From: an uncultured Planctomycetaceae bacterium
GTDB taxonomy: Bacteria > Planctomycetota > Planctomycetia > Pirellulales > UBA7805
Length of the DNA stretch: 55,724 nucleotides
Direction: 5' to 3'
NCBI GenBank assembly: GCA_964347545.1
Contig: CAYFZZ010000192.1
Coordinates: forward strand, 1-55,724
The notes under the pieces were generated by a model. It did no database searches and was not told where the DNA came from. It worked only from the letters and a program-made list of their open reading frames with translations. Shown piece by piece: positions 23,253 through 40,432 of the stretch. How positions within the stretch are numbered: the first letter of the stretch is position 1; every line of letters starts with the position of its first letter. A program made the position numbers and the translations under genes.

Positions 23253-23262
23253 TTGTCGAGCG

Positions 23263-24117: not shown

Positions 24118-24615
24118 TCAATGCTCGGGAGACACCTCGGGCCAAGTTCCCAGACCATCCAGTTCCGGCATGATTTCCACCAATTGATGCATCAGCATCC
24201 GGGCTAACCGCTGGACCTGGGCATTCCGTGTCTTGTGGGCCAGCGTGGCGGCGGTCTTCATGAGGCGGATCATCTGAGCTCGGCGGAGCACCGGGGTTGC
24301 GAAAGGCTGGTCCGCATCCACCAACAGCTCGGCCACCGGCACTTCCAGAACCTCTTGCCACCGGTAGAGCTGGCTGAGCGTCAAATCGGTGCTCTCCTCT
24401 TCCAGCTCGCGCAACTTGGAAATTCCTACCTTCCACCGCCGAGAGATCGCTCGCAAGGAAACCCCCTCCCGCTGACGGACCTCAGAGATGCGGTGCAGGG
24501 CGGGCCGGCTGCCGTTCGGAGGCTGGGTGGGGACCGCGCCCAGCAGCGGCTGGGATTCGCCGTCGACCCCGGCAGCGCCTTCGTAAAGATCTCGCGAATG
24601 GGCATCGGCCATCAT
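24118..24615 (-). CDS. XRE-family helix-turn-helix transcriptional regulator
   Basis: The HTH is VSLRAISRRWKVGISKLRELEEESTDLTLSQLYRWQEVLEVPVAELL. Start taken at MMADAH. Confidence 0.7.
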   Translation of the reverse strand: MMADAHSRDLYEGAAGVDGESQPLLGAVPTQPPNGSRPALHRISEVRQREGVSLRAISRRWKVGISKLRELEEESTDLTLSQLYRWQEVLEVPVAELLVDADQPFATPVLRRAQMIRLMKTAATLAHKTRNAQVQRLARMLMHQLVEIMPELDGLGTWPEVSPEH

Positions 24616-24947
24616 GTCCTCTCTTTCCACCCAGGTGGGGTCGTCAGCTGGTGGATCGCACTGCCGGCGGCGGAGAACCGTCGTCCCGCGAAAAAATTTC
24701 ACGCAGGCACGAGTTCGCCCCTGCCGGCGCATGCGCTGCGGGCCACTGTTTTGGTTTGTCTGTGCCTCTTCCGCTGCCAGCCACTACGCGGCGTTACCCG
24801 AATGGGTTCTGCTGAAAGGAGGTGGCAAGGGCCGGGACCGTCACCCGGGCGCATCCCACCGGTGTGCTTGCCTGCACAAACGCTTGATCGGAAAAGATCA
24901 AACCTCGGTCCGCGATAAGACTCATCCCTGCCAGACCGACTAATCGC

Positions 24948-24976
24948 ACTATAAAACGCCGCTCGGAATCTGACAA
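24948..24976 (-). promoter_or_regulatory. Candidate sigma-70-type promoter (TTGTCA-17 nt-TATAGT) on minus strand
   Basis: Read on the minus strand, TTGTCA is at 24976-24971, followed by a 17-nt spacer and TATAGT at 24953-24948. It would drive the HTH regulator gene through a leader of about 325 nt. Confidence 0.4.
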
Positions 24977-25047
24977 GTCGCAGGCCTGTGGGGCCTGCCG
25001 CAGGGGGCGAGCTGGGAAACCAGTGGAGGTTGGGCAAGCGTCCTCCT

Positions 25048-26157
25048 CTAGGGCCCGCTGCGGATCACTCGTCCCGAAATGTACGTATCCTCATCAATCC
25101 ATGTGCGGTGGACGTTTTCCAACTGCCAGGCGTCGGCCAGATGGTCCACGCCGTCGCCCTGCACGGCCGCCACGCCGCCTGCGATGATTTTGGGAGCGAC
25201 AAAAACGTGCACTTCGTCCACCGCGGCGATGGCGAAAAAGGTGCCCAGCAACCTGCCGCCCCCTTCGACCAGGACATTGGTCATCTGGCGGCGTCCCAGT
25301 TCGTCCAGCAGCGACTCGAGCCGGACGGTGGCCGAATCCCCCTGGCAGGCAAACACCTCGCACCCGGCGGCGGTCAAGCGTTGGGTTTCCACCGGGGGCG
25401 CATCGTGGCGGACGGCGACCAGCACTGGTGTTTGCCGGGCCGTTTTCACCAGCTGGCTTTCTGAGGAAAGTTGAGCCTGGGAATCGCACACCACGCGGAC
25501 CGCGGTCCGGGGACCCGGCGGCCGCGCGGTCAACAGCGGATCGTCGGCGTCCGCCGTATGGCAGCCGATGACGATCGCGTCCACGCGTCCCCTTAGTTGG
25601 TGTACGATGTGGCGTGACTTCGAGCAGGAAATCCAGCGGCTGTCGCCGGAGGCCGTAGCCACTTTTCCGTCCAGGGTCATGGCCCACTTGGCGAGGACCC
25701 AGGGCCGCCCGGTTTCGATCCGCTTGAAGTACGGCGCGTTCAGTTCGCGGGCTTCCTCTTCCAGGACGCCGCTGCCAACCTCGATTCCCGCGGCCTCCAG
25801 TTCAGCCGTTCCGCCGCCCTGGACTTGGGCGAAAGGGTCCCGAGTGGCGATCACGACCCGCTGGATGCCCGCCGCGATGATGGCCTCGGTGCAGGGGGGC
25901 GTTTTGCCCTGGTGGCGGCAAGGTTCCAGCGTGACATACAGGGTGGCGCCCCGCGCGGCGGGGCCCGCTTGGCGCAACGCTTCGACTTCGGCGTGCGGCT
26001 GGCCGAAGGCCGTGTGGAATCCCTGGCCGACGACCTGCTGGTCTTTGGCCACCACGCAGCCCACCATGGGGTTCGGTTCGACGCGGCCTTCCCCTTGGGC
26101 AGCCAGTTCCAGGGCCCGCAGCATGAATGGCTGATCTTTTTCGGAAGGCGGCATCAC
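25048..26157 (-). CDS. ribD: Bifunctional riboflavin-biosynthesis deaminase/reductase RibD
   Basis: The deaminase motifs HAEVEAL and LEPCRHQGKTPPC are present, and the C-terminal reductase domain follows (KWAMTLDGKVA ...). Confidence 0.93.
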   Translation of the reverse strand: MMPPSEKDQPFMLRALELAAQGEGRVEPNPMVGCVVAKDQQVVGQGFHTAFGQPHAEVEALRQAGPAARGATLYVTLEPCRHQGKTPPCTEAIIAAGIQRVVIATRDPFAQVQGGGTAELEAAGIEVGSGVLEEEARELNAPYFKRIETGRPWVLAKWAMTLDGKVATASGDSRWISCSKSRHIVHQLRGRVDAIVIGCHTADADDPLLTARPPGPRTAVRVVCDSQAQLSSESQLVKTARQTPVLVAVRHDAPPVETQRLTAAGCEVFACQGDSATVRLESLLDELGRRQMTNVLVEGGGRLLGTFFAIAAVDEVHVFVAPKIIAGGVAAVQGDGVDHLADAWQLENVHRTWIDEDTYISGRVIRSGP

Positions 26158-26268: not shown

Positions 26269-28407
26269 TCAAAAATCGGGCGTCCAGATGGCGGACTTCT
26301 TCTCCTGCCCGGCCGGGGCGGACTCGGGAGTCCAGATCTGGGACGACGGTTCCGCCCCACCCGGCTCGGCTTGCTCGGCAACCCCCGTCGGCGGGCCGGC
26401 CGCTGCCCCGCCCGCCATGGCTTGCAGCCGCTGAAAAAGGCCCACGACCGCTTCGGCAATCCCCGGCTCGTGCCAGTGTTTTGTCCGCAAGCGATGTAAT
26501 ACCCGTTCAAATTCTGCTTGTTCGCCGCGGGCCAGGCGTAATTCGAGTTCAGCCACGTGCCAGGGCGCCGGTGATTTTCCCGCCTCCCCGGCGGCCTGGC
26601 GGGCCCGTTCCAGGTTTTCCAGGGCGGCTTGGCTGTCGTGTTCCAGGCGGGCTAAGGTGCCGTAGACGTCCGCCCGGTTGACTTGGGCGGAGTCCCGCAA
26701 GCTGTCGCGGGCGACGATCTCATGCCCCAGACGGCGGATGGCGGGGTAGACCAGGCACGCCACGCTGCGTCGGTAACAGCTCACCAACTCCTGGTCGCTC
26801 AGCTTTTTCGGGACCAGCCGCGCCAAGCGTACCAGGGGCAAGCGGGTGACATCGATCCCGCTGGGGTCAATCGGTTCAAGCGCCGCGAAACCCAAGGCCT
26901 GCCGCAAGCCGTCAAAATCGGATTCCACCTGGGGATCGTCGCGGGCCAGTTGCAACAACAACACGGCCGCCAGGACCCTTGTACGGTAGGCCGTCTCGCC
27001 GGCCGCCTCGCGGGGCGTCTTGCCGTCCAGGACCGGGTTCGGCAAGCCGGTCCACACGTCCCGCAGCATGTCGCGGCGCTGTTGAGCCAGCAATGCCTCT
27101 CGACGCGCGGGGGGCGTATCTGGGGGGAGCCGCCAGTTCCAGGTCAGCGCGTGCTGCAGGCGGCTGACTTGGGTCAAGGTGGTCTGCTGAGCGGGATCTG
27201 CCAGGTCCGGGCCGACGACCTCGCGGAGCGTGGCCGTGGCCTTGTCGAAGCGGTCATCCTGGTACAGCACATATGCCAGGCGCGGCTCGCGGTCGGTTTC
27301 GCGCCCAAACAAATACGCCTGGCCCAGGACCAGCGGGATGTGGGCCAGCTGCAGGTCCACACCGCTGGCGGGCAGGGGGCGGTCCAGGATCCAAAAGGCG
27401 GCTCGGGGGGGTGGTTGTCCCTCGGCCAGCGGCGCCAGGGCTGCCGCCGGAACCGGGCTCGCCAACGGGGCCACGATACACTGGTCCAACACCCCCTGCA
27501 GGTCGCCGACCGGATAGGTTACCTGCACCAGGTCGACCATCTCTTGGGAGAGATGCGTATCGATCAGCTGAGCGATGGCGGCGGCCTCGACGGCGTCGTC
27601 CAGGGGTACGTCCGGCAGCGAGGCGTATTTTTGCCAGGCGGCCACGGCCGCATTGGTGTCGGCCAGCCAGGACCGCAGGATGGACAAATTGCGCCAGACG
27701 GCCGGGGCGTTGCCAGATCGGTCGACCAGAGCGGCGAATTTTTGTTCGGCCGCCCGCCAGGCACCCCGGTTGGCCAGCTGGCTCGCCTCGGCAAACGCCT
27801 TCTGCCAGGGCGCCTCCTGCGGCGGCTCGTCCAGCACCAGCTGGTCTTTCAGCAGGACCGGGACCTGGGGTGAGGCCCTCAGCGCGGAAATCGCCGCCAG
27901 GGCGTCGGCATCCTGGCCACGCGTCATTCCCGCCTGCAACAACAGGTGAGCCTGTCCCGCCAGGATCTCGCCGTCCTGCAACAGCGTTTCACCCACGTAG
28001 CCCAACGCCGCGTAGACGCGGGTCGGCAGCTGGTCCCCTGGGATGTTTTCCAGGGCGTGTTGCAGAGCTCTCACGGCCGCTCGGCCACCCTCGGTGGCCG
28101 CCAGCTGGATCGCGCGTTCTGCGAGGGCCACCGGATTGTGGGGATGAGCCGCGTCGAAACGATCCAGGGTCTCTTTCAAATCCTCGTCCCGCTCCAGCTC
28201 GCTCAACAGCAACGCCTTGACGGCCAGCAGGCAGGGACGATCGGGGTACTTGGCCAGCGTCTTATCCACGTGCTCGAGGCACGCCTGCCGCTGCTCCCCG
28301 CCCAGCATCTTGTCGATCGTCTGCAATTCGCCCAACAGCTCGTGACAGCAGAATTTGATCTTCTTGCCGGTCCCGCCTGGGCAAATCGTATAACGATCCA
28401 GTGACAT
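26269..28407 (-). CDS. Large soluble protein with N-terminal SEC-C-like Cys motif and TPR-like helical repeats, function unknown
   Basis: CPGGTGKKIKFCC at the N-terminus resembles the SEC-C metal-binding motif. The rest is helical and repeat-like, and coding-type GC3 is maintained throughout. Confidence 0.7.
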   Translation of the reverse strand: MSLDRYTICPGGTGKKIKFCCHELLGELQTIDKMLGGEQRQACLEHVDKTLAKYPDRPCLLAVKALLLSELERDEDLKETLDRFDAAHPHNPVALAERAIQLAATEGGRAAVRALQHALENIPGDQLPTRVYAALGYVGETLLQDGEILAGQAHLLLQAGMTRGQDADALAAISALRASPQVPVLLKDQLVLDEPPQEAPWQKAFAEASQLANRGAWRAAEQKFAALVDRSGNAPAVWRNLSILRSWLADTNAAVAAWQKYASLPDVPLDDAVEAAAIAQLIDTHLSQEMVDLVQVTYPVGDLQGVLDQCIVAPLASPVPAAALAPLAEGQPPPRAAFWILDRPLPASGVDLQLAHIPLVLGQAYLFGRETDREPRLAYVLYQDDRFDKATATLREVVGPDLADPAQQTTLTQVSRLQHALTWNWRLPPDTPPARREALLAQQRRDMLRDVWTGLPNPVLDGKTPREAAGETAYRTRVLAAVLLLQLARDDPQVESDFDGLRQALGFAALEPIDPSGIDVTRLPLVRLARLVPKKLSDQELVSCYRRSVACLVYPAIRRLGHEIVARDSLRDSAQVNRADVYGTLARLEHDSQAALENLERARQAAGEAGKSPAPWHVAELELRLARGEQAEFERVLHRLRTKHWHEPGIAEAVVGLFQRLQAMAGGAAAGPPTGVAEQAEPGGAEPSSQIWTPESAPAGQEKKSAIWTPDF

Positions 28408-28443
28408 GGGAAACAGAGTGGGGGGAGGGGGCGGAGGGGCAAT

Positions 28444-29493
28444 TCAAGCGGCATGCACCGCCCGTTTTTCGCCAATCAGGTTCAGGAGGTCTCGCTGAGG
28501 ATCGGCAAACTTGCGGATCCCTTCGTCCATCAACACGTCTTCCAGGTGCTGCATATCCACCTCGGCATCGATTTCGGCCAAGATGGCTTCCGACGGCAAG
28601 ATGTCGACCTGGCGGGTAAAAGGTGTTGAATTGGCGGCGACGTAGTCGTTGGTGGCCGGTGGATTGGTTTCGATGTCGCTGCCGGCGAACGCACGAACGT
28701 ATTTGTCGGGCGTATCCTCGGGATTCTTGGTCCCCGTGCTGGCAAAGATGATCTCCTGATCCAGCGGGCACGATTTGTCGGCCCAGAATTGGCGGTTGTC
28801 CTGCCACAGCCGCTTGGCGTTGACGATGCCGACCAGGCCCTGGGCTGCCTCCGTAAGTTGCGGCACGTGCTGGGCCGTATAGACGTCCACCCGCGAGACG
28901 AAAATGCTGTAGACACTTTTAAATAACGCCAGGCCGTTGGCGCGACGCTGAGCGCCGCGCCAGATGGCGTCCCGGGCGGCATGATATTGTCGCAAGGTGA
29001 AGATCAGCGTCACGTTCAGGGTCAGCCCGGCCGCCGCCAGCTCTTCCACAGCCGCCAGGCCGGCTGCAGTGGCCGGCACCTTGATCATCCGATTCTGGTG
29101 GCCGCGAGCCCACTGTTGAGCCAGCTGGAGGTACTGCTCGACCCGCTCCTCGTGCGAGAGCCCCAGCTGGTCGTCCTCCAGCAGCGGATCGACTTCAAAG
29201 CTGACATAGCCGTCATTGCCTGACGTGGACTGCCACACGGGATGGAATACCTGCTGAGCGTGCTGGACCAGGTCATCGGTCATCTGCCAGGCGATCTCCT
29301 CGTCGGTCAACCCCGCCCCCATGAGGGTCTTCAGTTGCTGGTCGAAGCGGCCCGACTTGATCAGATCCGAAACGATCACCGGGTTGGACGTGGCGCCCGT
29401 CGCGCCAACCGCTCGGCTGCTGACCACCAGTTCCGGGTCGACCGAGTCCAGCCAAAGTTTGGTTCCGGTGGCGATGAGAGATTCCAGGGACAT
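28444..29493 (-). CDS. tal: Transaldolase
   Basis: [18 protein letters not shown] and [10 protein letters not shown] are present, plus the Schiff-base lysine context [10 protein letters not shown]. Start taken at MSLESL. Confidence 0.9.
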
Positions 29494-29886
29494 CGAAGGG
29501 TTCTCGCGGGGGTTGGGGGATTTCCGCTGGTTGGTTTCCCGGCGGGGAAGGATCGTCAAGTTCCGCCCTGCCGAACCGTGGCAGGATCGGTCACACGGGA
29601 AATCACGGCCGGGGTGGGCATCACTGCTGGCACCGCTGGCCCGGGCCGATTCGCCCGCGAACCGGGTTTGCGGGGAGGGAACGGCCTTCGACGATTATAT
29701 CCGATGGGGCAGGGAGGGCAGCATGGCCCACCGCGGTAAATTATTCGTTATTTTCCAGTTTTTTCGATTATTTCTATTGTGATACCCGGAAATGGCCGAT
29801 GAGGCATCTGACCGCCTGTGTGCAGCGGGCGGGAGATCTGCAAGCATTCGCATTCAGGGGGGCCAACTGATGTGGAGGCATGATCG

Positions 29887-31269
29887 GTGTTGCGACCGGC
29901 CACGTCAATTCTGGCTTTCTTGGCTCTTTGCCTCTGGGGCATCGTCGGCGTTGGATTAGGACAACCGCCGGCCGGGCTGGACGAGATCCCGCCGCTGGAG
30001 CTGCCGACGCCCGAGGAGGGGAACGGCAATTGGGACCAGCTGGGGGACGAAATCCCCGATCTGGGCGAGGGCCCTTCCGAGGAATTACCCGAACCGCTGG
30101 GCAATGGGGATCGCGCCGGCGCCGATGGGCAGCAGCCGTCGGCGGGGGCGGAACCCGAGCAGTTGTTTGAGGGCTATGGCGAGCAGTACGAGCACGAAGA
30201 TGAGATCCGGGTGGACTACCTGGCCCCGATCTACAGTTCCGGGGAGTGGCTGGATTGCGGCACCTGGCTGGCTCATCTCGATTTCATGCTCATGTGGCGC
30301 TCGGTCGGCCAGGATACCCTTTTGGGGGAAGATACGATCCTGAACGCCGCGGGGCAGGTGGTGGCCCGTCGGCCCCTGGTGACCACCAACGTGGGATTCC
30401 GGATCACGCCCGGAGGCCGGATCAAGCTGGGCAGGTTCCTGACGCGGGATGTCTATAACCGCGACGTGATTACCGAAATCGAATACATGGGCCTTGTCGA
30501 TTTCCAGGTGGGTACCCAGCTGGCCGGTATCGGGAACGCGGGGATTCTGACCGCCTTGGATCCCTTTTTCGAGCCTGGCGGCTTTACGCCCACCATTGGC
30601 GGATTCAACAACTCGACATTCCAGCGTTTCGATTACAGTTCGGACCTGAACAGCTTTGAAATCAACACCCGCCTCCAGTATCGTCTGGGTCGCGACCGGC
30701 TGGTGGCCATGCCGGATGGGACGTGGAGCCGCCAGTTGGCCAGCACGCTGGTGCCTGCCTGCTTTATGGGGTTCCGCTATATCAAGGAGCAGGAGACCTT
30801 GTCGTGGGTCAGTCGCGTTAACGGGTTCCCCCTGGACGTCTATCGCGGCGACTACATCGTCGACACCGTGAACGAGCTGATAGGCTTCCAGGTTGGCGGC
30901 GACGCTCGGCTGCAGCACAAAAACTTCAACGCCGCGCTTCGTGTGAAAGGTGGCACTTTTGTCAACTTTGGGGACTCACGACGTTTTATCCTCAGCAATG
31001 ATCCCACGCCGGGCCGGATAGTGTTTAACCCGCCCTTGCGTACGACCCAACAGGATGAGGTCCTGGCGATCGCCTTGGAGGCAGGACTTAAGGGTGCTTA
31101 TCACGTGAACCCCAACCTGACGTTTCGGTTGAGTGGCGATGTGATGTGGCTGCATGGGCTGGCCGTGGCTCCTGAGCAGCTGACGTTTGAGCCGAGTCGC
31201 GGGCGGATCGATATGAGCGGAAATATTCTCTATCTGGGTCTTTCGACCGGAGTTGAGCTGATTTGGTGA
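29887..31269 (+). CDS. Outer-membrane beta-barrel protein, BBP7-like (planctomycetal family)
   Basis: GTG 29887 has GGAGG 9 nt upstream. A signal peptide (MLRPATSILAFLALCLWGIVGVGLG) and an acidic Pro-rich linker precede alternating beta-strand-like sequence. The protein ends in ...LSTGVELIW, an aromatic OMP-type C-terminus. Confidence 0.7.
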   Translation: MLRPATSILAFLALCLWGIVGVGLGQPPAGLDEIPPLELPTPEEGNGNWDQLGDEIPDLGEGPSEELPEPLGNGDRAGADGQQPSAGAEPEQLFEGYGEQYEHEDEIRVDYLAPIYSSGEWLDCGTWLAHLDFMLMWRSVGQDTLLGEDTILNAAGQVVARRPLVTTNVGFRITPGGRIKLGRFLTRDVYNRDVITEIEYMGLVDFQVGTQLAGIGNAGILTALDPFFEPGGFTPTIGGFNNSTFQRFDYSSDLNSFEINTRLQYRLGRDRLVAMPDGTWSRQLASTLVPACFMGFRYIKEQETLSWVSRVNGFPLDVYRGDYIVDTVNELIGFQVGGDARLQHKNFNAALRVKGGTFVNFGDSRRFILSNDPTPGRIVFNPPLRTTQQDEVLAIALEAGLKGAYHVNPNLTFRLSGDVMWLHGLAVAPEQLTFEPSRGRIDMSGNILYLGLSTGVELIW

Positions 31270-34202
31270 TGCAACGGCCTTATTTTTTTACGCGTAAATC
31301 GTTCCTGATTTTGCTGGCCGCCGTGTTCCTGCTGCCGATCGCCCTGCGCGGCGCGCGGATCGCTTTGGAAAACAACAAGAATGACGTCACCGAGTGGCTG
31401 CCGGACGGTTTTGCGGAAACCAAGGAGCTGGACTGGTTTCGCCATCACTTCCTGGGCGAGCAATTTGTGGTGATCAGCTGGGAGGGTTGTACCCTGGACG
31501 ACCCTCGCGTGGAAATGCTGGCCCGCAAACTGGTGCCTGACCACGAGTCGCCTGACAACGAGCGTCAGCGGTCGTTTTTCAAGAAGGTGACCACCGGTCC
31601 GCGCGTGCTGGCTCAGATGACCGACCCCGAGGGGAGTCTCAAGCTTAGCCAGCGAGAGGCCAAGCGGCGGTTGCAGGGGTCGCTGATCGGACACGACGGG
31701 GAAACGACCTGTGTCCTGGCCACCTTGCACGAAGGGGCCCTCCGCGACCTGCGGGCCGGCATCGGCCGCTCGTGGCCGCTCACCCAAATCCTCATGGGCC
31801 GCGAGGACGGCATTCTGTACCAGCTGGCTGTCAAGGAATGTGCCATTTCCAAGCCATCTATCCACCTCGGCGGACCGCCGGTGGACAACGTGGCGATTGA
31901 CGATGAAGGGGAAATCACCCTCATGCGGCTGGTAGGGCTCTCCGCCCTCGTCGGCCTCTGCCTCTCGTACTACTGCTTTCGCAGCAAGCGGGTCACGCTG
32001 ATGGTCTTCTGCTGCGGCGTCTACGGCGCGGCCGCCAGCCTGGCCATTGTCTACTTCACCCGGGGGGTCGTCGACGCCGTGCTGATGTCGATGCCTTCGG
32101 TGATCTACGTCCTGGGGCTCTCCGGGGCGATCCACCTGGTCAACTACTACCAGGACGCGGTCCGCGAATCAGGTCAGGAGGGAGCCCCGGGACGGGCGCT
32201 CAAGCACGGCTGGTTGCCCTGTACCCTGGCTGCGGTCACGACGGCCCTGGGGTTGGGCTCGCTGGTGACCAGTGAAGTGGTGCCGATCCGTAAATTCGGG
32301 AGCTACACCGCCTGGGGTGTCTTGTTCACCCTGGTGATCCTCTTCACCCTCCTGCCGGCCCTGTTGCAATTGTGGCCGCCACCCCGCCGCCGCCAAGTGA
32401 CCGCTCGGCCGATGGACCAGCAGCCCCCCGCCCGATGGGGCACGCTGCTGGACCGCTTTGCCTGCTGGATCGTCGGCCGCCATGTGGTCGTCACTGTGGT
32501 GTGCTCGATCGTGATGGCGATCCTGGCGATGGGCCTGCTGAAGATCGAAACCTCCGTGCAGTTGCTGAAACTCTTCCACAGCAAGGCCGACATCATCCAA
32601 GACTACACCTGGTTGGAACAGAACCTGGGCAATCTGGTGCCGATGGAGGTGGTGTTGCGGGTGCATCCTTCGCGGATGCGAGAAGCGGACGACGAGCTGA
32701 TGTCGGCAGAGGGCCGTTATCGGTTGACGTTTCTCGAGCGGATGGAGCTGGTGGAGGCGGTGCAGGAAAACATTGAACGCCTGCCAGAGGTCGGTCGAGC
32801 GTTGTCGATGAACACCTTTGCCCCCGTGTTGCCACCCAAGGCGGGCAGCCTGGCCACCTTTACCGAACGTTCCGGATTCAATGCCGGCCTGGCAAATCAC
32901 CGGGAAGAGTTCCTCGCAGGCGAGTACTTCCGGGTCGGTGAGGAGGGAGAGGAGCTGTTTCGGATCAGCGCGCGGTTGGCGGCGTTAAGCGACGTGGATT
33001 ACGGTCATTTCGTGGACGATATCCGCGGAGTGGTGCGGCCCATTCTGGCGGCCTACCGGCAGCGGGATCGGATCCTGGCCGAAATGGGCAGCCAGCAGGG
33101 TTCGTTCCGCGGCAAGCGGGTCTGCGTGGTAGGGGTTCCTCGCTGGAAACGCCCCACCAAGGAGACCCCGCCTCCCACGGCGGCCACCCCTTCAGACGAA
33201 CATCCCACCACCAGCCAGATCCTGGCCGGGACGCTGTACGACGCCTTACGGGTGGCGGGGGTCAAGGTCAGCCCGATTTTTGAGGCCGCTGCGGATTATG
33301 AGGCCACTAATTTCATCCGCGCCGGCGACGACAATCCGAAAGCCCAGGAATTCTTCAAAAAATTTGACCTGGTCTTTATTGCCAGCGATCACCCCTCAGT
33401 CGCCTCACGGTTTATCATGCGACATGCCCGGGCCTACATCGACGCGCGCCAGTTCGATCCGCTCAGCGTCGATCCCCAGGCAGAAATCGCGTCCGGGCTG
33501 AGGCCGGTCTACACGGGCGTGGTGCCGCTGGTCTACAAGGCTCAACGCGAGCTGCTGCAGGGCCTGGTGGAAAGTATCGGGCTGGCCTTCGTCTTGATCT
33601 GCATCGTGATGATCGCCATTCTCCGCTCGCCTTCCGCCGGCCTGTTATCGATGATTCCCAACGTATTTCCCATCGTGATGGTGTTTGGCTTCATGGGCTG
33701 GGCGGGGATTCTGATCGATATCGGCACGATGATGACGGCCAGCGTCGCCATGGGGGTCGCCGTGGACGACACGGTTCATTTTCTGACCTGGTTCCGCCGC
33801 GGCATTCTCAGCGGGCTCGACCGCCGAGGTGCGGTCCGCCTGGCCTATGCCCGTTGTGCCACAGCCATGATGCAAACGACGCTGATCGGCGGTCTGGGCT
33901 TGGGCGTGTTCGCGCTCAGCACCTTCACCCCCACGCAACGATTCGGCTACCTGATGATTGTCCTCTTGGTCACCGCGCTGGTCGGTGATTTGATCTTTCT
34001 GCCCGCTCTGCTGGCCGGACCGGTGGGACGCTTCTTTACCGGCCGCCTCCAACGGCAGGCTCTGCGGCGACAGGCCCCCGAGGGACAAGATACGCCGGCT
34101 CACGGCGTGCCGGCGCCGCACTTTGCCAGTCAGCCCCGGCATGCCCCCTCGGCGACATTTTCCCAGCCGCCCGATCCCCCCCGCTCGTCCCCCGGCGGCT
34201 GA
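31269..34202 (+). CDS. MMPL/RND-superfamily (SSD-type) transporter, ~977 aa
   Basis: There are two blocks of 5-6 TM helices separated by large soluble domains. Typical motifs include SMPSVIYVLGLSGAIHLVNYY and MTASVAMGVAVDDTVHFL. The ATG overlaps the barrel gene's TGA (TGATG). Confidence 0.85.
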   Translation: MQRPYFFTRKSFLILLAAVFLLPIALRGARIALENNKNDVTEWLPDGFAETKELDWFRHHFLGEQFVVISWEGCTLDDPRVEMLARKLVPDHESPDNERQRSFFKKVTTGPRVLAQMTDPEGSLKLSQREAKRRLQGSLIGHDGETTCVLATLHEGALRDLRAGIGRSWPLTQILMGREDGILYQLAVKECAISKPSIHLGGPPVDNVAIDDEGEITLMRLVGLSALVGLCLSYYCFRSKRVTLMVFCCGVYGAAASLAIVYFTRGVVDAVLMSMPSVIYVLGLSGAIHLVNYYQDAVRESGQEGAPGRALKHGWLPCTLAAVTTALGLGSLVTSEVVPIRKFGSYTAWGVLFTLVILFTLLPALLQLWPPPRRRQVTARPMDQQPPARWGTLLDRFACWIVGRHVVVTVVCSIVMAILAMGLLKIETSVQLLKLFHSKADIIQDYTWLEQNLGNLVPMEVVLRVHPSRMREADDELMSAEGRYRLTFLERMELVEAVQENIERLPEVGRALSMNTFAPVLPPKAGSLATFTERSGFNAGLANHREEFLAGEYFRVGEEGEELFRISARLAALSDVDYGHFVDDIRGVVRPILAAYRQRDRILAEMGSQQGSFRGKRVCVVGVPRWKRPTKETPPPTAATPSDEHPTTSQILAGTLYDALRVAGVKVSPIFEAAADYEATNFIRAGDDNPKAQEFFKKFDLVFIASDHPSVASRFIMRHARAYIDARQFDPLSVDPQAEIASGLRPVYTGVVPLVYKAQRELLQGLVESIGLAFVLICIVMIAILRSPSAGLLSMIPNVFPIVMVFGFMGWAGILIDIGTMMTASVAMGVAVDDTVHFLTWFRRGILSGLDRRGAVRLAYARCATAMMQTTLIGGLGLGVFALSTFTPTQRFGYLMIVLLVTALVGDLIFLPALLAGPVGRFFTGRLQRQALRRQAPEGQDTPAHGVPAPHFASQPRHAPSATFSQPPDPPRSSPGG

Positions 34203-34609
34203 ACGGGACGCGGCCAGGGCCGCGCGTCCGCAAAGACACCCCCCCCCGCACCGAGCGGGTTTCCCCGATCCGCTTCCGGATCACCAGACCGTTCGTCTCC
34301 TTCCTGCCGTCCGCCGCCTCCCGACCACGGCGTCCGCCGGCCCACCGCCGCTCGGCCCGGGTCTGCCAGCCCCACGGGCAGCGCGGGACTTGGGGTGGCC
34401 CGATCCGGCCAGCTGCCCTCAGCCAGGCCGCACGCTCACCACGTCCCTTCTGGCCCTCCTTCCGCCTTCAGGCGGTCGGGAACGCGCATCGCCCCTCGGC
34501 GGGCGGGACACGGCGCTGGTCCACTGGGCATCCGCCCCATCCACCCGCTTCTGACAAAAATTTGTGGGGTGCGGTAAGATGAACAAGCCGTCAACGGTTG
34601 GCCCTTACG

Positions 34610-35956
34610 ATGCTGTTTCCCCTCCCCTTAGCGCCTTTCGAAGAGTACATGCTGGTCGATGACCGGCCGGCATATCCGATGAACTTCTTCCTGCGGTTGC
34701 GGTTTGAGGGCCTGTTCAACCCTGCCTTGCTGGAAGAGGCATGTGGCCAAAGCGTGGCTCGGCATCCGCTGCTGTCCGCCCATTTGCAGCCGGCCCGCGG
34801 AGGTCGGTTCCAGTGGGTACAGCCCTCCCACCGCTCGTGCCCGCTCAGGTGGCGCACCACAGCGGGGGGCGAGGAGCCGATTGGGGCGATTGACCTGCAG
34901 CGCGAACCGGGACTGCGGGTTTGGGCCACGGCCGAAAAAGACGGCACAGAGCTGTTGCTGCAGTTTCATCACAGTTGTTGCGACGCCGTGGGCGCTTGCC
35001 AGTTTGTCGAGGATCTGCTGGTCTGCTATGCCGGCCTGCAGGGAGGGGCTGGGTCACCAGCCGATCTGCGGCCGGTGGACGCGGCTGGTCTTTTGTCGCG
35101 GGAGTCGTACGGTGCGCCCGGCTGGCAGTTGACGCGGCTGTTTGGCCAACAGTCGCTCGGTCTCCGGCGAGCCCGCAAGTTTTTCATGCGCAACGCCGTG
35201 CCGCTCAAGCCGGGCGTCGAGCGGGTTGCGGAGGATTCGCTGCCCGACGATTTTCCCAGCAGTTGCGTGCACGAATTCGACCAGCCCCAAACGGCAGGGC
35301 TGCTGGCCGCCGCTCGGGCAGCGGGTACGACGGTGAACAATCTCTTGCTGAGGGACCTCTTTCTGGCGCTGGAGGCGTTTCGAGCGCGGCGGGAGATGAG
35401 CTGTGGGGAGGATTGGTTGCGGCTGGCGGTGCCGGTGAATATGCGGTTGCGCGGGGACGAGCGGTTGCCGACGGCGAATTTGGTAAGCATGGTGTTTTTG
35501 GACCGCCAGTCGCGCGAATGTGCCGATCCGGCGGCATTGTTGCTCAGCCTGCATGACGAAATGCAGCTGGTCAAGCAGCGGCGGTTGGGACTGACCTTCC
35601 TCCTGGCCCTCCGCTACAACCGCAAGCTACCCGGCGCGATCGCTCGGCTCCGCCGCCGCACCCAGCGGGCCCTCTGCCAGGGTACGGCCGTGATCAGCAA
35701 CCTGGTCAGCCCCTGGGAAAATTCCAGTCTGCGGCGGCCGGATGGCCAAATCGTGGCCGGGGATGTCCTGTTGCGACGCGTCGATTTTCTGCCACCCCTG
35801 CGCCCGTACACGGCCGCAGCGGTCGGCGTGGTGACCTGTGCCCAACGGTTGTGCCTGGCCCTCCACTACGATTCGCGGGTATTGAATCGCGAAGAGGCCG
35901 CAGAACTGCTGGAAAACCTGGTCCGCGGTATGCAGCGGTCGCAGGCACCGGTCTGA
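34610..35956 (+). CDS. Free-standing condensation-domain (PapA5 / WS-DGAT-like) acyltransferase
   Basis: LLLQFHHSCCDAVG places an HHxxxD(G/A) motif at residues 120-126, and the length is about 448 aa. No A or T domains are attached. A TTG alternative start lies at 34598. Confidence 0.8.
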   Translation: MLFPLPLAPFEEYMLVDDRPAYPMNFFLRLRFEGLFNPALLEEACGQSVARHPLLSAHLQPARGGRFQWVQPSHRSCPLRWRTTAGGEEPIGAIDLQREPGLRVWATAEKDGTELLLQFHHSCCDAVGACQFVEDLLVCYAGLQGGAGSPADLRPVDAAGLLSRESYGAPGWQLTRLFGQQSLGLRRARKFFMRNAVPLKPGVERVAEDSLPDDFPSSCVHEFDQPQTAGLLAAARAAGTTVNNLLLRDLFLALEAFRARREMSCGEDWLRLAVPVNMRLRGDERLPTANLVSMVFLDRQSRECADPAALLLSLHDEMQLVKQRRLGLTFLLALRYNRKLPGAIARLRRRTQRALCQGTAVISNLVSPWENSSLRRPDGQIVAGDVLLRRVDFLPPLRPYTAAAVGVVTCAQRLCLALHYDSRVLNREEAAELLENLVRGMQRSQAPV

Positions 35957-36407: not shown

Positions 36408-37718
36408 TCAGGCCAGGCGGGATGGTTCGGCGGCGATCAGCACGGCCACCGCCTGGCCCATCTGGGCTTGATTCAGCAAGAGGGCCACCGGTTTGCCCAG
36501 CGGTTGGGATTGACCGTGGACGACGTTCACCGGGCATTCCGCGTCGGGTTGCTGGTAATTGAGCGTCACGGGGATTTCACCGTGGGCCAGCCCCAGCAGG
36601 CTGGCGACGGCTTCGACCGCGCCTCCCCCGGCCCCGATGTCGCCGAAAAAACTCTTGGGGGCCGTGACGGGGACATCCCCCAGCACATCCCGGATGGCCT
36701 GCGCCTCGGTTCGGTCACCTTCGATGGTGGCGATGCCGTTGGCGTTGACGTGGCCGATGTCGGCCGGTCGTAGTCCCGCCGCTGCGAGGGCCGCTTGGAT
36801 GCCGGCCCGAATCGCCTGGCCCTCAGGCGGTGACCCCTGCCGGGTCGGTGGCTGGAAGGTACTGCCGTAACCGAGGATCCGCCCCAGGATGCGGGCCCCT
36901 CGCTGCTGAGCATGTGCTCGGCTCTCCAGCACGAACGAAGCGGCCCCTTCGCCAGGCACCGTCCCATCGCGGTCGGCGTCAAAGGGGCGGCAAGCGGTGG
37001 AGGGGGGGGAGGGGCAACGGTGGGTTAACTGGTTGCGAAGGCGGAAGTCGATGCAGGTGGGATGAATCTGCGAACTGGTACCGCCGGCGATGATCACATC
37101 CGCCTGGTTTCGCTGGATCACCCGAACGGCCTCGGTCAGAGCCTGCAGGCTGGAAACATCCCCGAGGGTGATCGAGTTATTGGGGCCCCGTGCGTCGTGA
37201 GCGATACCGATGTGGCAAGCGGGCATGTTGGGAAGGTATTTCAACAGCCACAAGGGATACATCTCGGAGAGGGCCTGGGATCCCCAACGAGCGAATTCGA
37301 ATTTGCCGTTGACCATGCAACTTCGCATCGGATCGACAATTTCCTCGACCTCGCAGTACATCAGGTCGGCCCCAAAAATAACCCCCACCCTTTCCGGATC
37401 GACGGCGGCCTCTTTCAGTCCGCTGTCGCCGACCGCCATATCGGCCGCGGCGAATCCGAGCTGAATGTCGCGGCACATGACCTTCAAGCTCTTCCGCGGC
37501 CGCACATACTGCTTGGGGTCGAAATCGTCGACCTGCCCGGCCAACTTGCAGGGGCAGTTGCGGTTGTCAAAGGCGGTCAGTTCGCCAATCCCGCTGCGCC
37601 CAGCCTGCAGGGCGTCCCAGAAGGCGTCCAGGCCAATGCCGATGGGGCTGATCACCCCCATACCGGTGATCACGACTTCGCGCTGCGGCGAATCAAGTTG
37701 ATAGCCACGGGAGTGCAT
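36408..37718 (-). CDS. Beta-ketoacyl-ACP synthase II (FabF)-like protein lacking the Cys-His-His triad
   Basis: It is colinear with FabF (VVITGMGVISPIG ... DVIIAGGTS ... RPFDADRDGTVPGEGAA). The triad positions read TLGDVSS (Cys to Asp), VNANGIAT (His to Asn) and KSFFGDIGAGGG (His to Asp). Confidence 0.85.
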   Translation of the reverse strand: MHSRGYQLDSPQREVVITGMGVISPIGIGLDAFWDALQAGRSGIGELTAFDNRNCPCKLAGQVDDFDPKQYVRPRKSLKVMCRDIQLGFAAADMAVGDSGLKEAAVDPERVGVIFGADLMYCEVEEIVDPMRSCMVNGKFEFARWGSQALSEMYPLWLLKYLPNMPACHIGIAHDARGPNNSITLGDVSSLQALTEAVRVIQRNQADVIIAGGTSSQIHPTCIDFRLRNQLTHRCPSPPSTACRPFDADRDGTVPGEGAASFVLESRAHAQQRGARILGRILGYGSTFQPPTRQGSPPEGQAIRAGIQAALAAAGLRPADIGHVNANGIATIEGDRTEAQAIRDVLGDVPVTAPKSFFGDIGAGGGAVEAVASLLGLAHGEIPVTLNYQQPDAECPVNVVHGQSQPLGKPVALLLNQAQMGQAVAVLIAAEPSRLA

Positions 37719-37965: not shown

Positions 37966-39135
37966 CTAAGATCCCGCTTCGCTATCCGCCGGGTAGTCGT
38001 ACAGCCGGTGCGTTTTGACCAGCCGGGCCCCCCCCTTTTCCAAACTGCGGCGGGAAAGCCGATTCGACTCGGCCACCCAGGAGAATTCGCATTCCTCGAT
38101 GCCGTAGTCCAGCACCTTGGGCAACAGGCCTTGGAGGACGACGAGGCTGAGCCCCCATTTTTGGTACTCGGGCACCACCGTAGTCGCGATGGCGCGAATC
38201 CGCTTGATCTCGCGCCGCTTGCTCAGCAGCTTCCAGAAACCCCACGGGAACAGGCGACCATCGGCCTGGCGAATGCGGGGGTTGAAATCCAACAAGGCGA
38301 AACAAGCACCGACCACCTTGCCCTCCACCTCGGCGATGCTGGTCAGCTGCGGTTCAATCAGCCACCGCAAGGCCCGGCTGAAATGCCGTGCCTCCGAGTC
38401 GGTCAACGGCACAAATCCCCAATTGTTGGCCAGGGATGCGTTGTAAATCTGCAAGTAGGTATCGACTTCCTCGCGAAAACGGGATTTGTCCAACGAACGG
38501 ACCTCTACCTGGAAGCGGCGCTTGGCTTCCTCACCAATAAACGCCAGCTTTTCGTCCAGCCCTGCCAGCATGTTGATGTGACCCCAGAAGGAAAGCAGGT
38601 CCTGGGATTTGCGGAAACCAAATTCTTCCACCAAACGCGGATAATACGGCTTGTTGTACGTCATCATGAACGTCGGCGGTTCGTCGAAGGCATCGATCAG
38701 CAGGCCACATTCGTAATTCATCGACGGGTTGACTGGTCCCCGCAGTTGGTGGATCCCCCGTTCGGCAAACCAATCGCGGACCGCCGTGAACAGCCCGCGG
38801 GCCACCTCCGAGTCGTCCACCGACTCGAAAAATCCAAAAAAGCCTCGCTGTTCCTCGTGATAGCGGTTGTGGCCGTGATCCAGGACGGCGGCAATCCGCC
38901 CGCAGACCGCCCCCGCCCGGGTGGCCAGAAACGTCTGAGCCTCGTTTTGCTCGTAGAAGGGGTGCTTCTTGTAACCGACCAGCTCCTGCTGGTTCAGCCG
39001 CAGAGGAGGGATCCAGTGGGGATCCTCGCGGTACAACTGCCAGGGATATTCCAGAAATTGCTTCCGCTGGCGGCGCGTGGTGACCGGCTGGACCTGAAGA
39101 GCGGACAAGGGTGCCTCCGCCGTCGGTTGGCGCAA
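37966..39135 (-). CDS. GNAT-like acyl/acetyl-transferase family protein (~390 aa, uncharacterised family)
   Basis: FLEYPWQLYREDPHWIPPLRL ... GRIAAVLDHGHNRYHEEQRGFFGFFESVDD ... LRGPVNPSMNYECGLL matches my recollection of a widespread uncharacterised GNAT-fold family. The start codon is uncertain (TTG 39135). Confidence 0.65.
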   Translation of the reverse strand: MRQPTAEAPLSALQVQPVTTRRQRKQFLEYPWQLYREDPHWIPPLRLNQQELVGYKKHPFYEQNEAQTFLATRAGAVCGRIAAVLDHGHNRYHEEQRGFFGFFESVDDSEVARGLFTAVRDWFAERGIHQLRGPVNPSMNYECGLLIDAFDEPPTFMMTYNKPYYPRLVEEFGFRKSQDLLSFWGHINMLAGLDEKLAFIGEEAKRRFQVEVRSLDKSRFREEVDTYLQIYNASLANNWGFVPLTDSEARHFSRALRWLIEPQLTSIAEVEGKVVGACFALLDFNPRIRQADGRLFPWGFWKLLSKRREIKRIRAIATTVVPEYQKWGLSLVVLQGLLPKVLDYGIEECEFSWVAESNRLSRRSLEKGGARLVKTHRLYDYPADSEAGS

Positions 39136-39418: not shown

Positions 39419-40432
39419 ATGGCCCATTTCCTGGTCACCGGCGGAACCGGTTTCATCGGCAGCCACCTGGTCGATACCCTGCTGGCCCGCGGGCACCAGG
39501 TCACTTGTCTGGCTCGACCCTCCCCCCGCACCGAGCGCCTGCAGGGCCAGGCGGTGCGGCTGGTGGAAGGCGACCTGTGCGACACGGCGGCGGTCCGGCA
39601 GGCGGTGGAGGACTGCGACGTGGTTTTTCACCTGGCCGGTTCGGTCAAGGCGCTCCAGCCAGAAACGATGCTCAAAACCAACGTCGAAGGCACACGGGTC
39701 CTGGCGACCGCCTGTGCCGCTCGACCCACTCCCCCCACGCTGGTGCTGACCTCCAGCCTGGCGGCGGCGGGACCCAGCCCGGCGGGGCAACCGCGACGGG
39801 AGGGGGATCGTTGTCAGCCCGTGTCGGTCTACGGACGCAGCAAGCGGGACGCTGAACTGGTGCTGGAGGAATTTGCCCAGCGGCTGCCGGCCAGCGTGGT
39901 ACGGCCTCCCATCGTATTTGGACCCCGCGACCAGGGCATGCTGGCCATGTTCAAGGCGATCCGCCGGACGCGGATGCACCTCCTGCCTGGCTACCGCCGT
40001 CGCACCTATTCCCTGATCCATGCTGCCGATCTGGTGGAGGCCTTGCTGCGGGTCGCCACCCAAGGATCGCGGCTGGCTGCGGCCAGTTCCGAGGGTGGCC
40101 ACCAGGGTTATTACTACGTGGCCGACGATCAGCAGCTGACGTACGGCCAGTTAGGCAGCATGATCACCCGCGCTCTGGGCGGCCGCTGGGTGCTGAACCT
40201 GCCGATGCCTGAGTGGAGCGTTTGGTTGTCGGCGTGGGTCAACGACCAAATCTCCCGCCGGCGGGGGGAGGCACACGTGTTGAATATTGACAAAGCCCGC
40301 GAGGCGACGGCCGGCAGCTGGACCTGCTCGGCGGAAAAAATCGAGCGGGAACTTGGCTTCCACACCGCCGCGCCGCTGGCCGAACGGATGCAGGAAACGG
40401 CAAGCTGGTATCGAGCCGAGGGGCTGTTGTGA
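39419..40432 (+). CDS. NAD(P)-dependent epimerase/dehydratase-family reductase
   Basis: MAHFLVTGGTGFIGSHLV Rossmann motif and YGRSKRDAE (YxxxK). Confidence 0.88.
   Translation: MAHFLVTGGTGFIGSHLVDTLLARGHQVTCLARPSPRTERLQGQAVRLVEGDLCDTAAVRQAVEDCDVVFHLAGSVKALQPETMLKTNVEGTRVLATACAARPTPPTLVLTSSLAAAGPSPAGQPRREGDRCQPVSVYGRSKRDAELVLEEFAQRLPASVVRPPIVFGPRDQGMLAMFKAIRRTRMHLLPGYRRRTYSLIHAADLVEALLRVATQGSRLAAASSEGGHQGYYYVADDQQLTYGQLGSMITRALGGRWVLNLPMPEWSVWLSAWVNDQISRRRGEAHVLNIDKAREATAGSWTCSAEKIERELGFHTAAPLAERMQETASWYRAEGLL

Follow-up and report, generated by a model that had tools for sequence, protein, structure and literature searches.

The transporter HpnN of diderm bacteria needs no partner of the TolC type to move lipid from the inner membrane toward the outer one, and, to our knowledge, no dedicated barrel gene is associated with it. 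Likewise, we know of no function or partner assigned to the outer-membrane barrel family BBP7 (PF07585). How the outer membrane of planctomycetes is built and supplied is poorly understood, and how lipids are handed on, once past the inner membrane, by transporters of the HpnN/MmpL type is an open question. The role of HpnN has been described, as has the sterol transport of Methylococcus capsulatus via BstA, the periplasmic binding protein BstB, and the all-helical BstC (PMC10942540). In mycobacteria, the pairing of PapA enzymes with MmpL transporters is established and the roles of PapA1, PapA2, and PapA3 have been described; the outer-membrane partners of the mycobacterial MmpLs are still to be established (reviewed in PMC6463170). 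Where a barrel gene immediately precedes that of an HpnN/MmpL-type transporter, its product would offer a concrete candidate for the outer-membrane step that is missing.

An arrangement of this kind is present in the window (the whole stretch of 55,724 nucleotides analyzed here). According to the ORF listing, its + strand carries the genes for a barrel protein, for a transporter of the MMPL Pfam family (hereafter MMPL), and for a stand-alone condensation-fold enzyme (Table 1). The sequence-only reading had proposed that the three constitute one dedicated, three-tier system, in which MMPL exports an acylated lipid or glycolipid completed by a PapA-like enzyme, with the barrel taking charge of delivery to the surface. 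This interpretation is partly supported: the individual genes were largely as described, and the linkage between enzyme and exporter was not supported. On balance, the locus is better read as a mosaic than as one dedicated three-gene system. Profile scans against Pfam and NCBIfam covered part of the ORFs of the window, and gene order was compared across 85 non-identical loci with MMPL orthologues, of which 64, 58, or 53 were informative, depending on the question; the transaldolase gene upstream served as the negative control for synteny.

Table 1. Features of the locus (positions refer to the window).
Feature	Positions	Strand	Basis
Transaldolase, divergent housekeeping neighbor	28444..29559	-	PF00923, 177 bits
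Predicted outer-membrane beta-barrel protein, 460 aa	29887..31269	+	ORF, RBS, AlphaFold2, Foldseek
MMPL-Pfam, HAE3/HpnN-like RND-superfamily transporter, 977 aa	31269..34202	+	PF03176, NCBIfam, PDB match
Spacer from MMPL stop to condensation gene, 407 nt	34203..34609		Coordinates
Promoter-like element, CTGACA-N18-TAAGAT(GAAC)	34551..34584	+	Motif scan; 26 nt upstream of condensation ATG
Stand-alone condensation-superfamily acyltransferase (predicted), 448 aa	34610..35956	+	PF00668, PDB match, AlphaFold2, Foldseek
FabF-like ketosynthase homologue without catalytic triad (KS-like)	36408..37718	-	Pfam, NCBIfam, FabF alignment
GNAT-fold acyltransferase, about 385 aa (388-aa protein)	37966..39135	-	Orthologue Pfam matches, GNAT structure match
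Extended SDR (NAD-dependent epimerase/3-beta-HSD/HpnA-like)	39419..40432	+	PF01370, 133.7 bits

The barrel gene starts with GTG, preceded by GGAGG 8 nt upstream. The N-terminus of its product is hydrophobic and signal-peptide-like (residues 3–18 form a hydrophobic helix in the AlphaFold2 model) and is followed by a 95-aa acidic linker rich in E, G, P, and D with a net charge of −23. Over residues ∼125–460, a beta-barrel of about 12–14 long strands was modeled, with a pLDDT of 70–95 in most blocks and a whole-protein mean of 62.2. All of the best PDB matches of this model retrieved with Foldseek were outer-membrane barrels (a Legionella porin, OmpT/Pla, FadL, and OmpG; E-values down to 2e-9). 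The terminal Trp was invariant in 10 homologues, so that the protein has the features expected of an outer-membrane barrel, namely, antiparallel barrel strands between a signal-peptide-like N-terminus and an aromatic last residue. The model, thus, supports an outer-membrane-protein fold, in agreement with the signal-peptide barrel proposed from the sequence. The accompanying description as BBP7-like with an aromatic C-terminus can be retained for the Trp and for a distant relationship, not for family membership: PF07585 scored 15.1 bits (E 0.013) versus a cutoff of 26. The kinship, which runs through the homologues P0006–P0010, must be remote because the window protein stays below the cutoff while P0006 and P0008 pass it (28.7 and 27.3 bits, respectively).

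At the junction of the barrel and MMPL genes, the sequence reads ATT TGG TGA TGC AAC, the ATG at 31269 sharing one base with the TGA stop codon, exactly as the overlap (TGATG) had been reported. PF03176 matched the MMPL protein in two stretches (58.3 bits; cutoff 20.5), which supports, at the level of sequence, its assignment as an MMPL-Pfam protein of the RND superfamily. HAE3 and HpnN were the best NCBIfam models, and the best PDB sequence match was again HpnN (E 1e-6), which belongs to the HAE3 branch of RND (Burkholderia/Rhodopseudomonas; PDB 5KHN, 5KHS, and 6WU0). However, the scores were far under the family cutoffs, both for TIGR00921 (120 bits) and for the HpnN equivalogs TIGR03480 (84.6 vs 751.85) and NF052374 (38 vs 1100). 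The cutoff of the mycobacterial-type MmpL subfamily, TIGR00833, was missed as well (69.6 vs 874.7 bits). The hydropathy profile (TM1, residues 11–29; loop, 30–215; cluster, 216–366; segment, 406–424; loop, 425–765; cluster, 766–915) shows, as in HpnN, two periplasmic loops and membrane segments grouped into two clusters, in the RND 1+5/1+5 manner, with seven segments distinct before residue 425 and TM11 undetected by the simple scan. D269 in TM4 and D833, D834, T835, and H837 in TM10 were invariant in 27 orthologues and are candidate residues of the proton relay. MMPL is probably an HAE3/HpnN-type member of the RND superfamily, powered by the proton-motive force. On the model of HpnN and MmpL3, from which the direction and nature of transport are taken, its most likely task would be to carry an amphipathic lipid from the inner membrane toward the outer one. 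A further likeness to HpnN is the HpnA-like SDR encoded nearby; in contrast, hopanoid biosynthesis genes were found neither among the window ORFs scanned nor among the listed called genes of related loci, and no sterol synthesis genes were seen. The Bst system is similar in concept, that is, an HpnN-like inner-membrane RND transporter with further parts toward a diderm outer membrane, and MMPL and the SDR weakly matched BstA and SdmB (sterol demethylase), respectively. Its resemblance ends there, as the partner in the window is a beta-barrel and BstA is matched with a negligible 19.4 bits (cutoff 1400).

The condensation ORF opens at a TTG (34598), while the deposited protein begins with the ATG listed in Table 1; numbered from this ATG, HHSCCDA occupies residues 120–126. 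The enzyme scored 31.7 bits with PF00668 (cutoff 30.6), and its AlphaFold2 model (pLDDT 92) resembled both free-standing and NRPS condensation domains in Foldseek (TM 0.6–0.72), which bears out the earlier description of a stand-alone condensation enzyme ∼400 nt downstream of MMPL. The catalytic residues H120, H121, and D125 (HHxxxD) were invariant in 54 homologues, with HHACCDG as the family consensus. It is likely active as an acyltransferase acting on O or N. PapA5 (1q9j) was its best PDB sequence match (E 0.0027; HHSCCD aligned to HHCMAD) and only rank 46 by fold, the enzyme being no nearer to PapA5 than to NRPS condensation domains or AzeD. All PapA family models were missed: the PapA5 model NF006787 with 24.1 bits versus 396, NF006790 with 21.7 versus 716, and PF16911 (PapA_C) with 22.4 versus 30. 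WS/DGAT enzymes share the condensation-superfamily fold and an HHxxxDG-type motif, and the window protein gave weak WS_DGAT_C and WES_acyltransf matches, yet PF06974 remained below its cutoff (18.1 vs 20.7 bits); precomputed PF06974 or PF03007 matches exist for several homologues. The family is an uncharacterized, Pirellulales-wide one between PapA5 and WS/DGAT.

With respect to the dedicated three-tier system, the likeness to the mycobacterial PapA1/PapA2–MmpL8, PapA3–MmpL10, and PapA5–MmpL7 pairs is plain, as the gene of an HHxxxD condensation-fold enzyme, whose catalytic motif is intact and whose fold is modeled with confidence, neighbors that of an MMPL-Pfam transporter. The locus has all three gene types in one direction, an arrangement shared by the nearest relatives (L001/L002). 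Beyond these, it is not conserved. Among ∼59 informative loci, the condensation gene adjoins MMPL in two lineages only, both with at least 85% MMPL identity (1/58, plus L001); at 77% MMPL identity and below, it is absent from this position, for example from L007 (77% identical, with 7.1 kb of downstream sequence) and from the MMPL loci of Adhaeretor mobilis and Bremerella volcania. Condensation homologues of 38–50% identity have unrelated neighbors, and six other contexts of the family contain neither MMPL nor barrel within the fetched range. Lack of co-conservation or co-transcription of the three genes had been named beforehand as refuting the earlier idea, at whose core stands the enzyme–exporter pairing, and it is the condensation gene that is not co-conserved. 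Nor is the spacer preserved: the 407 nt of the window and the 860 nt of L001 can be aligned only at the promoter-like element. The CTGACA-N18-TAAGAT element, composed of sigma-70-type hexamers (a kind not validated as promoters in Planctomycetota), is unique within the window, 0 being expected from shuffled sequences. Identical hexamers at identical spacing precede the condensation orthologues of L001/L002, L101, and L099, which makes four lineages with the window, and in L099 no MMPL lies upstream. The condensation gene is, hence, probably transcribed separately, from this promoter-like element. Also, no type I polyketide synthase gene was found near the locus in the Pfam/NCBIfam scan. Because the condensation gene is joined only in the closest relatives and is preceded by its own promoter-like element, the three-part export route lacks support in its proposed form, and we consider it very unlikely. 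In its favor, the KS-like and SDR genes, which belong to a set recurring with MMPL, are neighbors of the condensation gene in L099 and L101 as well; some functional tie of the enzyme to that set and, hence, indirectly to MMPL is conceivable. The analogy to PapA–MmpL drawn here, thus, rests on a recent, lineage-specific adjacency, so that the barrel–MMPL pair and the KS-like/GNAT/SDR genes are better targets than the condensation enzyme.

As to the barrel–MMPL pair, the barrel gene was found directly upstream of MMPL, on the same strand, in 25/64 informative loci, namely, in 9/9 with at least 60% MMPL identity, in 15/32 between 42.5 and 60%, and in 1/23 below. The neighborhood expected from the sequence-only reading, thus, exists, but is not peculiar to the pair: in 53 loci, the barrel adjoined MMPL 20 times, the transaldolase control likewise 20 times, and a 712-aa protein (X712) 22 times. 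Since the transaldolase is beside MMPL as often as the barrel, much of this adjacency reflects block synteny. This raises the possibility that a BBP7-type porin, an independent MMPL for envelope lipids, and an unrelated housekeeping acyltransferase are merely neighbors in an old Pirellulales block that includes RibD, the 712-aa protein, transaldolase, barrel, and MMPL. Genes for RibD, HisG, and adh_short are likewise common to the window and L018. Consistent with this, each of the two genes occurs at the position without the other: behind the barrel lie two PQQ_2 propellers and a hydrolase (L010 and L012) or ThuA (L014), and MMPL lacks the barrel in B. volcania and at least seven other loci. 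Moreover, outside one clade, that is, below 64% MMPL identity, the spacer is mostly 114–488 nt (23 nt in L009 and 2.3 kb in L032), which leaves room for a separate promoter. Against mere neighborhood speaks that no locus with both genes departs from the order in which the barrel directly precedes MMPL in the same direction, and that in nearly every locus of 64–100% MMPL identity the two are immediately adjacent (envelope-to-hit gap of about 3 nt), even though barrel identity drops to about 35% across these loci. In addition, MMPL exceeded 1,050 aa in 16/17 orthologues without a barrel versus 3/21 with one, because of an extra 100–160-aa periplasmic insertion, a difference that hints at a link between barrel absence and insertion and is perhaps phylogenetic. 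Pure block synteny is, on this evidence, possible but rather doubtful.

For the favored reading as a mosaic, barrel and MMPL would form a two-gene unit, immediately adjacent in the clade of the window and overlapping in the window itself, and the gene arrangement suggests that the barrel may be the outer-membrane acceptor for MMPL. Only in the immediate clade of the window would the condensation gene have come to lie between MMPL and the KS-like gene, and any role of its product in MMPL cargo would be a lineage-specific addition rather than the basis of the system. AcrB–AcrA–TolC, too, comprises an RND-superfamily inner-membrane protein encoded with an outer-membrane protein; in contrast, MMPL is of the HAE3/MMPL rather than the HAE1 type, and the barrel is of the monomer type, its fold matching OmpT, FadL, and porins instead of TolC. 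As the Pfam/NCBIfam scan detected no membrane-fusion protein or TolC-family (OMF) domain in the genes between 26.2 and 43.2 kb, and as the barrel fold is not that of TolC, the locus does not fit a tripartite RND efflux pump. A more far-reaching version, which we hold to be improbable as a whole, would combine the non-TolC barrel and the HAE3/HpnN-like transporter into a two-component, trans-envelope lipid export system of Pirellulales that dispenses with a membrane-fusion protein. The 95-aa acidic, Pro-rich barrel tail would then span the periplasm to the MMPL loops, and lineages that have lost the barrel gene would compensate via the insertion, which lies in periplasmic loop 1 of MMPL. The cargo would be an unnamed envelope lipid from the KS-like/GNAT/SDR set, to which the condensation enzyme might contribute further acylation in the window clade.

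As candidates for producing or altering the cargo of MMPL, the KS-like, GNAT, and SDR proteins, which recur with it across Pirellulales, are to be preferred, and they point to an undescribed lipid pathway widespread in this order. What had been said of them from the sequence (a triad-less KAS-like protein, a GNAT-like protein, and an NAD reductase) proved accurate. In the KS-like protein, whose likely start is M73 of a 508-aa ORF running to 37934, alignment to FabF of T. thermophilus revealed Asp, Asn, and Asp in place of the catalytic Cys, His, and His, and the FabF cutoff was missed (TIGR03150, 296 bits vs 493.75); in 14/14 MMPL-linked KS-like proteins, Asp or Glu takes the place of the catalytic Cys. 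The GNAT copy of the window has no Pfam match itself, Acetyltransf_1 matches 12/13 of its orthologues and 17/21 distant members, and the family profile matches GNAT structures; this uncharacterized family is large (7,600 cluster representatives at E ≤ 1e-3). The SDR ORF, which extends to a GTG at 39239, belongs to the extended, NAD-dependent type and stays below the HpnA cutoff (TIGR03466, 147 bits vs 367.65). Genes of the set lie within 10 kb of MMPL in 19/58 loci, and remain together despite their order and orientation being shuffled (e.g., in L054, L044, L064, and L068). In L018, L022, L025, and L057 (MMPL 64–66% identical), the KS-like gene begins 62–82 nt past MMPL, with no condensation gene between them. 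The presence of the set and that of the barrel were uncorrelated, the four classes comprising 7, 9, 9, and 20 loci.

Three open reading frames, all on the plus strand, occupy the places at which the sequence-only reading had put an outer-membrane barrel, an MMPL transporter and a stand-alone condensation enzyme. Their products are a protein with an outer-membrane barrel fold, a transporter of the MMPL/HAE3 type within the RND superfamily, and a condensation-fold enzyme whose HHxxxD motif is intact. Translation of the barrel gene starts at a GTG codon, with GGAGG located 8 nt upstream, and the hydrophobic N-terminus is followed by a 95-aa stretch rich in E, G, P, and D (net charge −23). AlphaFold2, supplied with 10 homologues, predicted a closed β-barrel from approximately residue 125, with pLDDT values between 70 and 95 for most barrel blocks; the whole-protein average was 62, lowered by the disordered N-terminal third. 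The top Foldseek matches in the PDB were exclusively outer-membrane barrels (the Legionella Dot/Icm-associated porin, OmpT/Pla, OpcA, FadL, and OmpG), and the C-terminal residue, tryptophan, was invariant in 10 of 10 homologues. The protein had also been termed BBP7-like; it scored 15.1 bits against the BBP7 Pfam model (cut-off 26), which more distant members of its own family exceed, and the term thus describes a remote relationship rather than membership. The acidic, Pro/Gly-rich tail following the signal peptide (residues 26-120) is predicted to be disordered, carries the short conserved motifs PPLELP and IPDLGD, and is long enough to bridge the periplasm.

Features of the window considered in the analysis
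Feature	Position	Strand	Remark
Housekeeping block	12646-26157		HisG to RibD
712-aa protein and transaldolase	26269-29559	both -	used as synteny control
Outer-membrane barrel	29887-31269	+	460 aa
Disordered tail of the barrel	29962-30246	+	residues 26-120
MMPL transporter	31269-34202	+	977 aa
Condensation enzyme	34610-35956	+	448 aa
KS-like protein	36408-37718	-	FabF-like homologue
GNAT acyltransferase	37966-39135	-	388 aa
SDR	39419-40432	+	extended type
Rce1-like/Sulfotransfer_3 ORF	51262-53229	+	656 aa

The ATG of the transporter gene has one base in common with the TGA of the barrel gene (...TGG TGA TGC...); the TGATG overlap noted earlier is thus real and would be compatible with translational coupling. 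The transporter passed the MMPL Pfam model (58.3 bits), its hydrophobic segments form two clusters and its loops span residues 30-215 and 425-765, resembling the 1+5/1+5 arrangement of RND proteins, and the acidic residues in TM4 and TM10 were invariant in 27 orthologues. The best NCBIfam models were HAE3 (120 bits) and HpnN (85 bits), and HpnN (PMC10942540) was also the closest sequence relative in the PDB. Both models were missed by far at their equivalog cut-offs, so that the protein can be likened to HpnN and HAE3 in its working mode but not assigned to them; by NCBIfam subfamily model it is not a mycobacterial-type MmpL either. By analogy with HpnN and MmpL3, the proton gradient would drive the transfer of an amphipathic lipid from the inner to the outer membrane. 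The locus differs from a tripartite pump in having neither a membrane-fusion protein nor a TolC-like fold. The Bst sterol system offers a conceptual parallel, the periplasmic and outer components of which are not barrels (PMC10942540). Within a limited set of papers, searches on BBP7, on the outer-membrane proteins of planctomycetes, and on their MMPL/HpnN proteins found no description of a barrel paired with an HAE3/MMPL transporter.

Related loci were collected by scanning genomes with the barrel alignment, by scanning metagenomes with the alignment of the 27 MMPL orthologues, and by looking up individual homologues; neighbouring genes were identified by tblastn and by HMMs built and iterated on six-frame ORFs. 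After identical copies had been dropped, 85 loci with an MMPL orthologue (39-100% identity) remained, and the census was taken at the level of loci. Of the 64 loci with sufficient upstream sequence, 25 had the barrel gene directly upstream of the MMPL gene and co-directional with it: 9/9 at MMPL identities of at least 60%, 15/32 between 42.5 and 60%, and 1/23 below 42.5%. The iterated barrel HMM, run over the six-frame ORFs of all loci, recovered no barrel upstream of the seemingly barrel-less MMPLs beyond the 37 already known. In nearly all loci with at least 64% MMPL identity, the envelope-to-hit gap between the two genes was ∼3 nt (the exception, L018, looks frameshifted); outside this clade the spacer mostly measured 114-488 nt, for example 320 nt in Adhaeretor mobilis HG15A2 (L013), whereas L009 (23 nt) and L032 (2.3 kb) fell outside this range.

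How much this adjacency says about function was gauged from the genes on the other side of the barrel. Where 3.2 kb or more of upstream sequence was available (53 loci), the MMPL gene was adjoined by the divergent transaldolase gene, which encodes an enzyme of the pentose-phosphate pathway, in 20 cases and by the barrel gene in just as many; the conserved 712-aa protein was present in 22. A transaldolase being found next to the transporter exactly as often as the barrel marks the region as an old syntenic block, and adjacency alone is therefore no proof of function. Furthermore, barrel and MMPL each occur beside the transaldolase without the other, the barrel in L010, L012, and L014 (where it is followed by ThuA), the MMPL in Bremerella volcania and in seven or more other loci. 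That barrel, MMPL, and neighbours are linked by nothing but an old chromosomal block is a serious rival explanation, if one of rather low probability. In favour of a real link, the relative orientation of barrel and MMPL never changes, and their immediate adjacency is kept across the clade in which barrel identity drops to ∼35%.

An unexpected anticorrelation between barrel presence and MMPL length also speaks against this explanation, but it is perhaps purely phylogenetic. MMPLs with a barrel upstream comprise ∼965 aa (18/21 do not exceed 1050 aa, 3/21 are longer), those without one ∼1170 aa (16/17 exceed 1050 aa). The latter are longer because 100-160 aa are inserted after residue 98 (window ∼31560); the insertion lies in periplasmic loop 1 and shows NWGG..EKW..G..WYYLLP.GEL..W.G. 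as a conserved motif; examples are the homologues P0156, P0157, P0163, P0164, P0179, P0191, P0194, P0207, and P0239. The insertion could compensate for the absent barrel or simply mark a clade.

Several further observations concern the block itself. The 712-aa protein has no Pfam domain and a Cys-rich N-terminus (CPGGTGKKIKFCC); together with the transaldolase it remains beside barrel and MMPL across 24% to 82% identity, and its gene was relocated downstream in Adhaeretor mobilis (L013). Farther upstream in the window lie housekeeping genes for HisG, a CHAD protein, the binding protein, two permeases, and ATPase of a phosphate-type ABC transporter, an adh_short reductase, and RibD. Three of these (RibD, HisG, and adh_short) recur near the MMPL gene of L018, which shows that synteny is long-range. 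In L010 (11817-15950) and L012 (7875-11974), the barrel is followed by two tandem PQQ_2/BamB-like β-propeller proteins and an α/β hydrolase.

At least one of the genes encoding the KS-like protein, the GNAT, and the SDR was found within 10 kb of the MMPL gene in 19 of 58 informative loci, across Pirellulales; the recurrent neighbours are a Cys-less KS-like protein, a GNAT of ∼385 aa, and one or two extended SDRs. In L018, L022, L025, and L057 (64-66% MMPL identity), the KS-like gene starts 62-82 nt past the MMPL gene and is followed by the SDR gene, and neither a condensation gene nor a GNAT gene was found in these four loci. L064, L065, and L068 carry GNAT and SDR genes, both in + orientation, directly after the MMPL gene, and order and orientation vary further (KS+ SDR− SDR− GNAT+ in L054; KS+ GNAT− SDR+ in L044). 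That the genes remain beside the MMPL gene through such rearrangement argues more strongly for a functional link than an unchanging gene order would. The KS-like protein of the window has Asp, Asn, and Asp where the Cys-His-His triad is expected, confirming that it is triad-less; the cysteine is replaced by Asp or Glu in 14/14 MMPL-linked members, whereas the true FabF in L087 retains the triad. The window copy of the GNAT had no Pfam match, but 12/13 of its orthologues and 17/21 distant members matched GNAT models, and its profile matched GNAT structures; at E ≤ 1e-3 the family numbers 7600 cluster representatives (50% identity), which makes it a very large one. The SDR is of the extended NAD-dependent epimerase/3-β-HSD type, with HpnA as the best named model, below its cut-off.

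This set, which is without match to known pathways, is a better candidate for a partner of the transporter than the condensation enzyme. Functional readings of the locus are all based on gene neighbourhood, and the one we favour, with modest confidence, is a mosaic: a barrel-MMPL pair beside the KS-like/GNAT/SDR set, with the condensation enzyme as a recent, separately transcribed neighbour. Going solely by gene arrangement, the barrel may receive or insert the transported lipid, which the KS-like protein, the GNAT, and the SDR may synthesize or modify. The pair and the recurrent set are leads for planctomycete envelope biology.

Three known lipid pathways were considered for the locus. A sphingolipid route, with the GNAT in place of bacterial ceramide synthase and the SDR as CerR, was dropped because no serine palmitoyltransferase-like gene was present among the window ORFs scanned or in the conserved set, and because only general GNAT similarity was found. 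For a hopanoid or sterol route, the best named matches (HpnN, HpnA, SdmB, and BstA) all missed their cut-offs by a wide margin, and triterpenoid genes were not seen. A wax-ester route, with the condensation enzyme as WS/DGAT and the SDR as fatty acyl reductase, is plausible, although all its matches are sub-threshold (PF06974, 18.1 bits) or non-specific (PF07993, 76 bits, among 13 SDR families). The distant sulfotransferase of the sequence-only reading, 15 kb away, is a single ORF combining an Rce1-like CAAX-protease membrane domain with a Sulfotransfer_3 domain, and was seen in no related locus.

The condensation protein, deposited with its start at ATG 34610, narrowly passed the Condensation Pfam model (31.7 vs 30.6 bits). 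Its HHSCCD aligns with HHCMAD of PapA5, and HHxxxD is invariant among 54 members of the family. The confident predicted model (pLDDT 92) superposes on stand-alone and NRPS condensation domains with TM scores of 0.6-0.72, AzeD ranking 1 and PapA5 ranking 46. The enzyme thus belongs to the condensation superfamily, whereas membership in the PapA family is not demonstrable; most likely, it would acylate a hydroxyl or amine, with a thioester as acyl donor.

Within the fetched ranges, the condensation gene was near an MMPL gene in only two lineages, that of the window (including L019, a fragment of the window sequence) and the L001/L002 clade, the MMPL of which is 85% identical. It was absent from L007 (77% MMPL identity; 7.1 kb of downstream sequence available), L003, A. 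mobilis, B. volcania, and all other MMPL loci. Orthologues in L101 (68% identity) and L099 (55%) are convergent with a KS-like gene and near an SDR gene; upstream of the condensation gene in L099 lie a GDSL lipase and an adh_short gene, and no MMPL gene. Homologues at 50%, 47%, 46%, 43%, and 38% identity have neighbours unrelated to the genes of the window locus. The window has 407 nt between MMPL and condensation genes and L001 has 860 nt; these spacers cannot be aligned, and the only element they have in common is CTGACA-N18-TAAGAT, 26 nt before the condensation ATG in the window, where it occurs once (0 expected from shuffles). Identical hexamers, again 18 nt apart, precede the orthologues in L001/L002, L101, and L099. 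Conservation of this element, a consensus match rather than a mapped promoter, in four lineages, one of them without an upstream MMPL gene, argues for the condensation gene being its own transcription unit. A repeat search between 29.4 and 36.5 kb revealed neither meaningful repeats nor ends of insertion elements around the gene, Rfam had no match over the whole window, and a terminator scan performed no better than on shuffles.

The proposal that condensation enzyme, MMPL, and barrel constitute one three-tier lipid system is therefore unlikely, despite the fact that the genes themselves had been described correctly: of the trio, only barrel and MMPL are recurrently co-conserved, and the link between condensation enzyme and transporter is lineage-specific at best. 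The PapA-MmpL pairing of mycobacteria (PMC6463170) remains a fair analogy for the gene order in the window, but not for the evolutionary behavior of the family. In L100 (988-4862), the gene of a condensation homologue (46% identity) precedes two co-directional genes, for a fatty-acid desaturase and for a glycosyltransferase of the GT21 (ceramide-glucosyltransferase-like) type, an arrangement that hints at members of the condensation family acting on membrane lipids.
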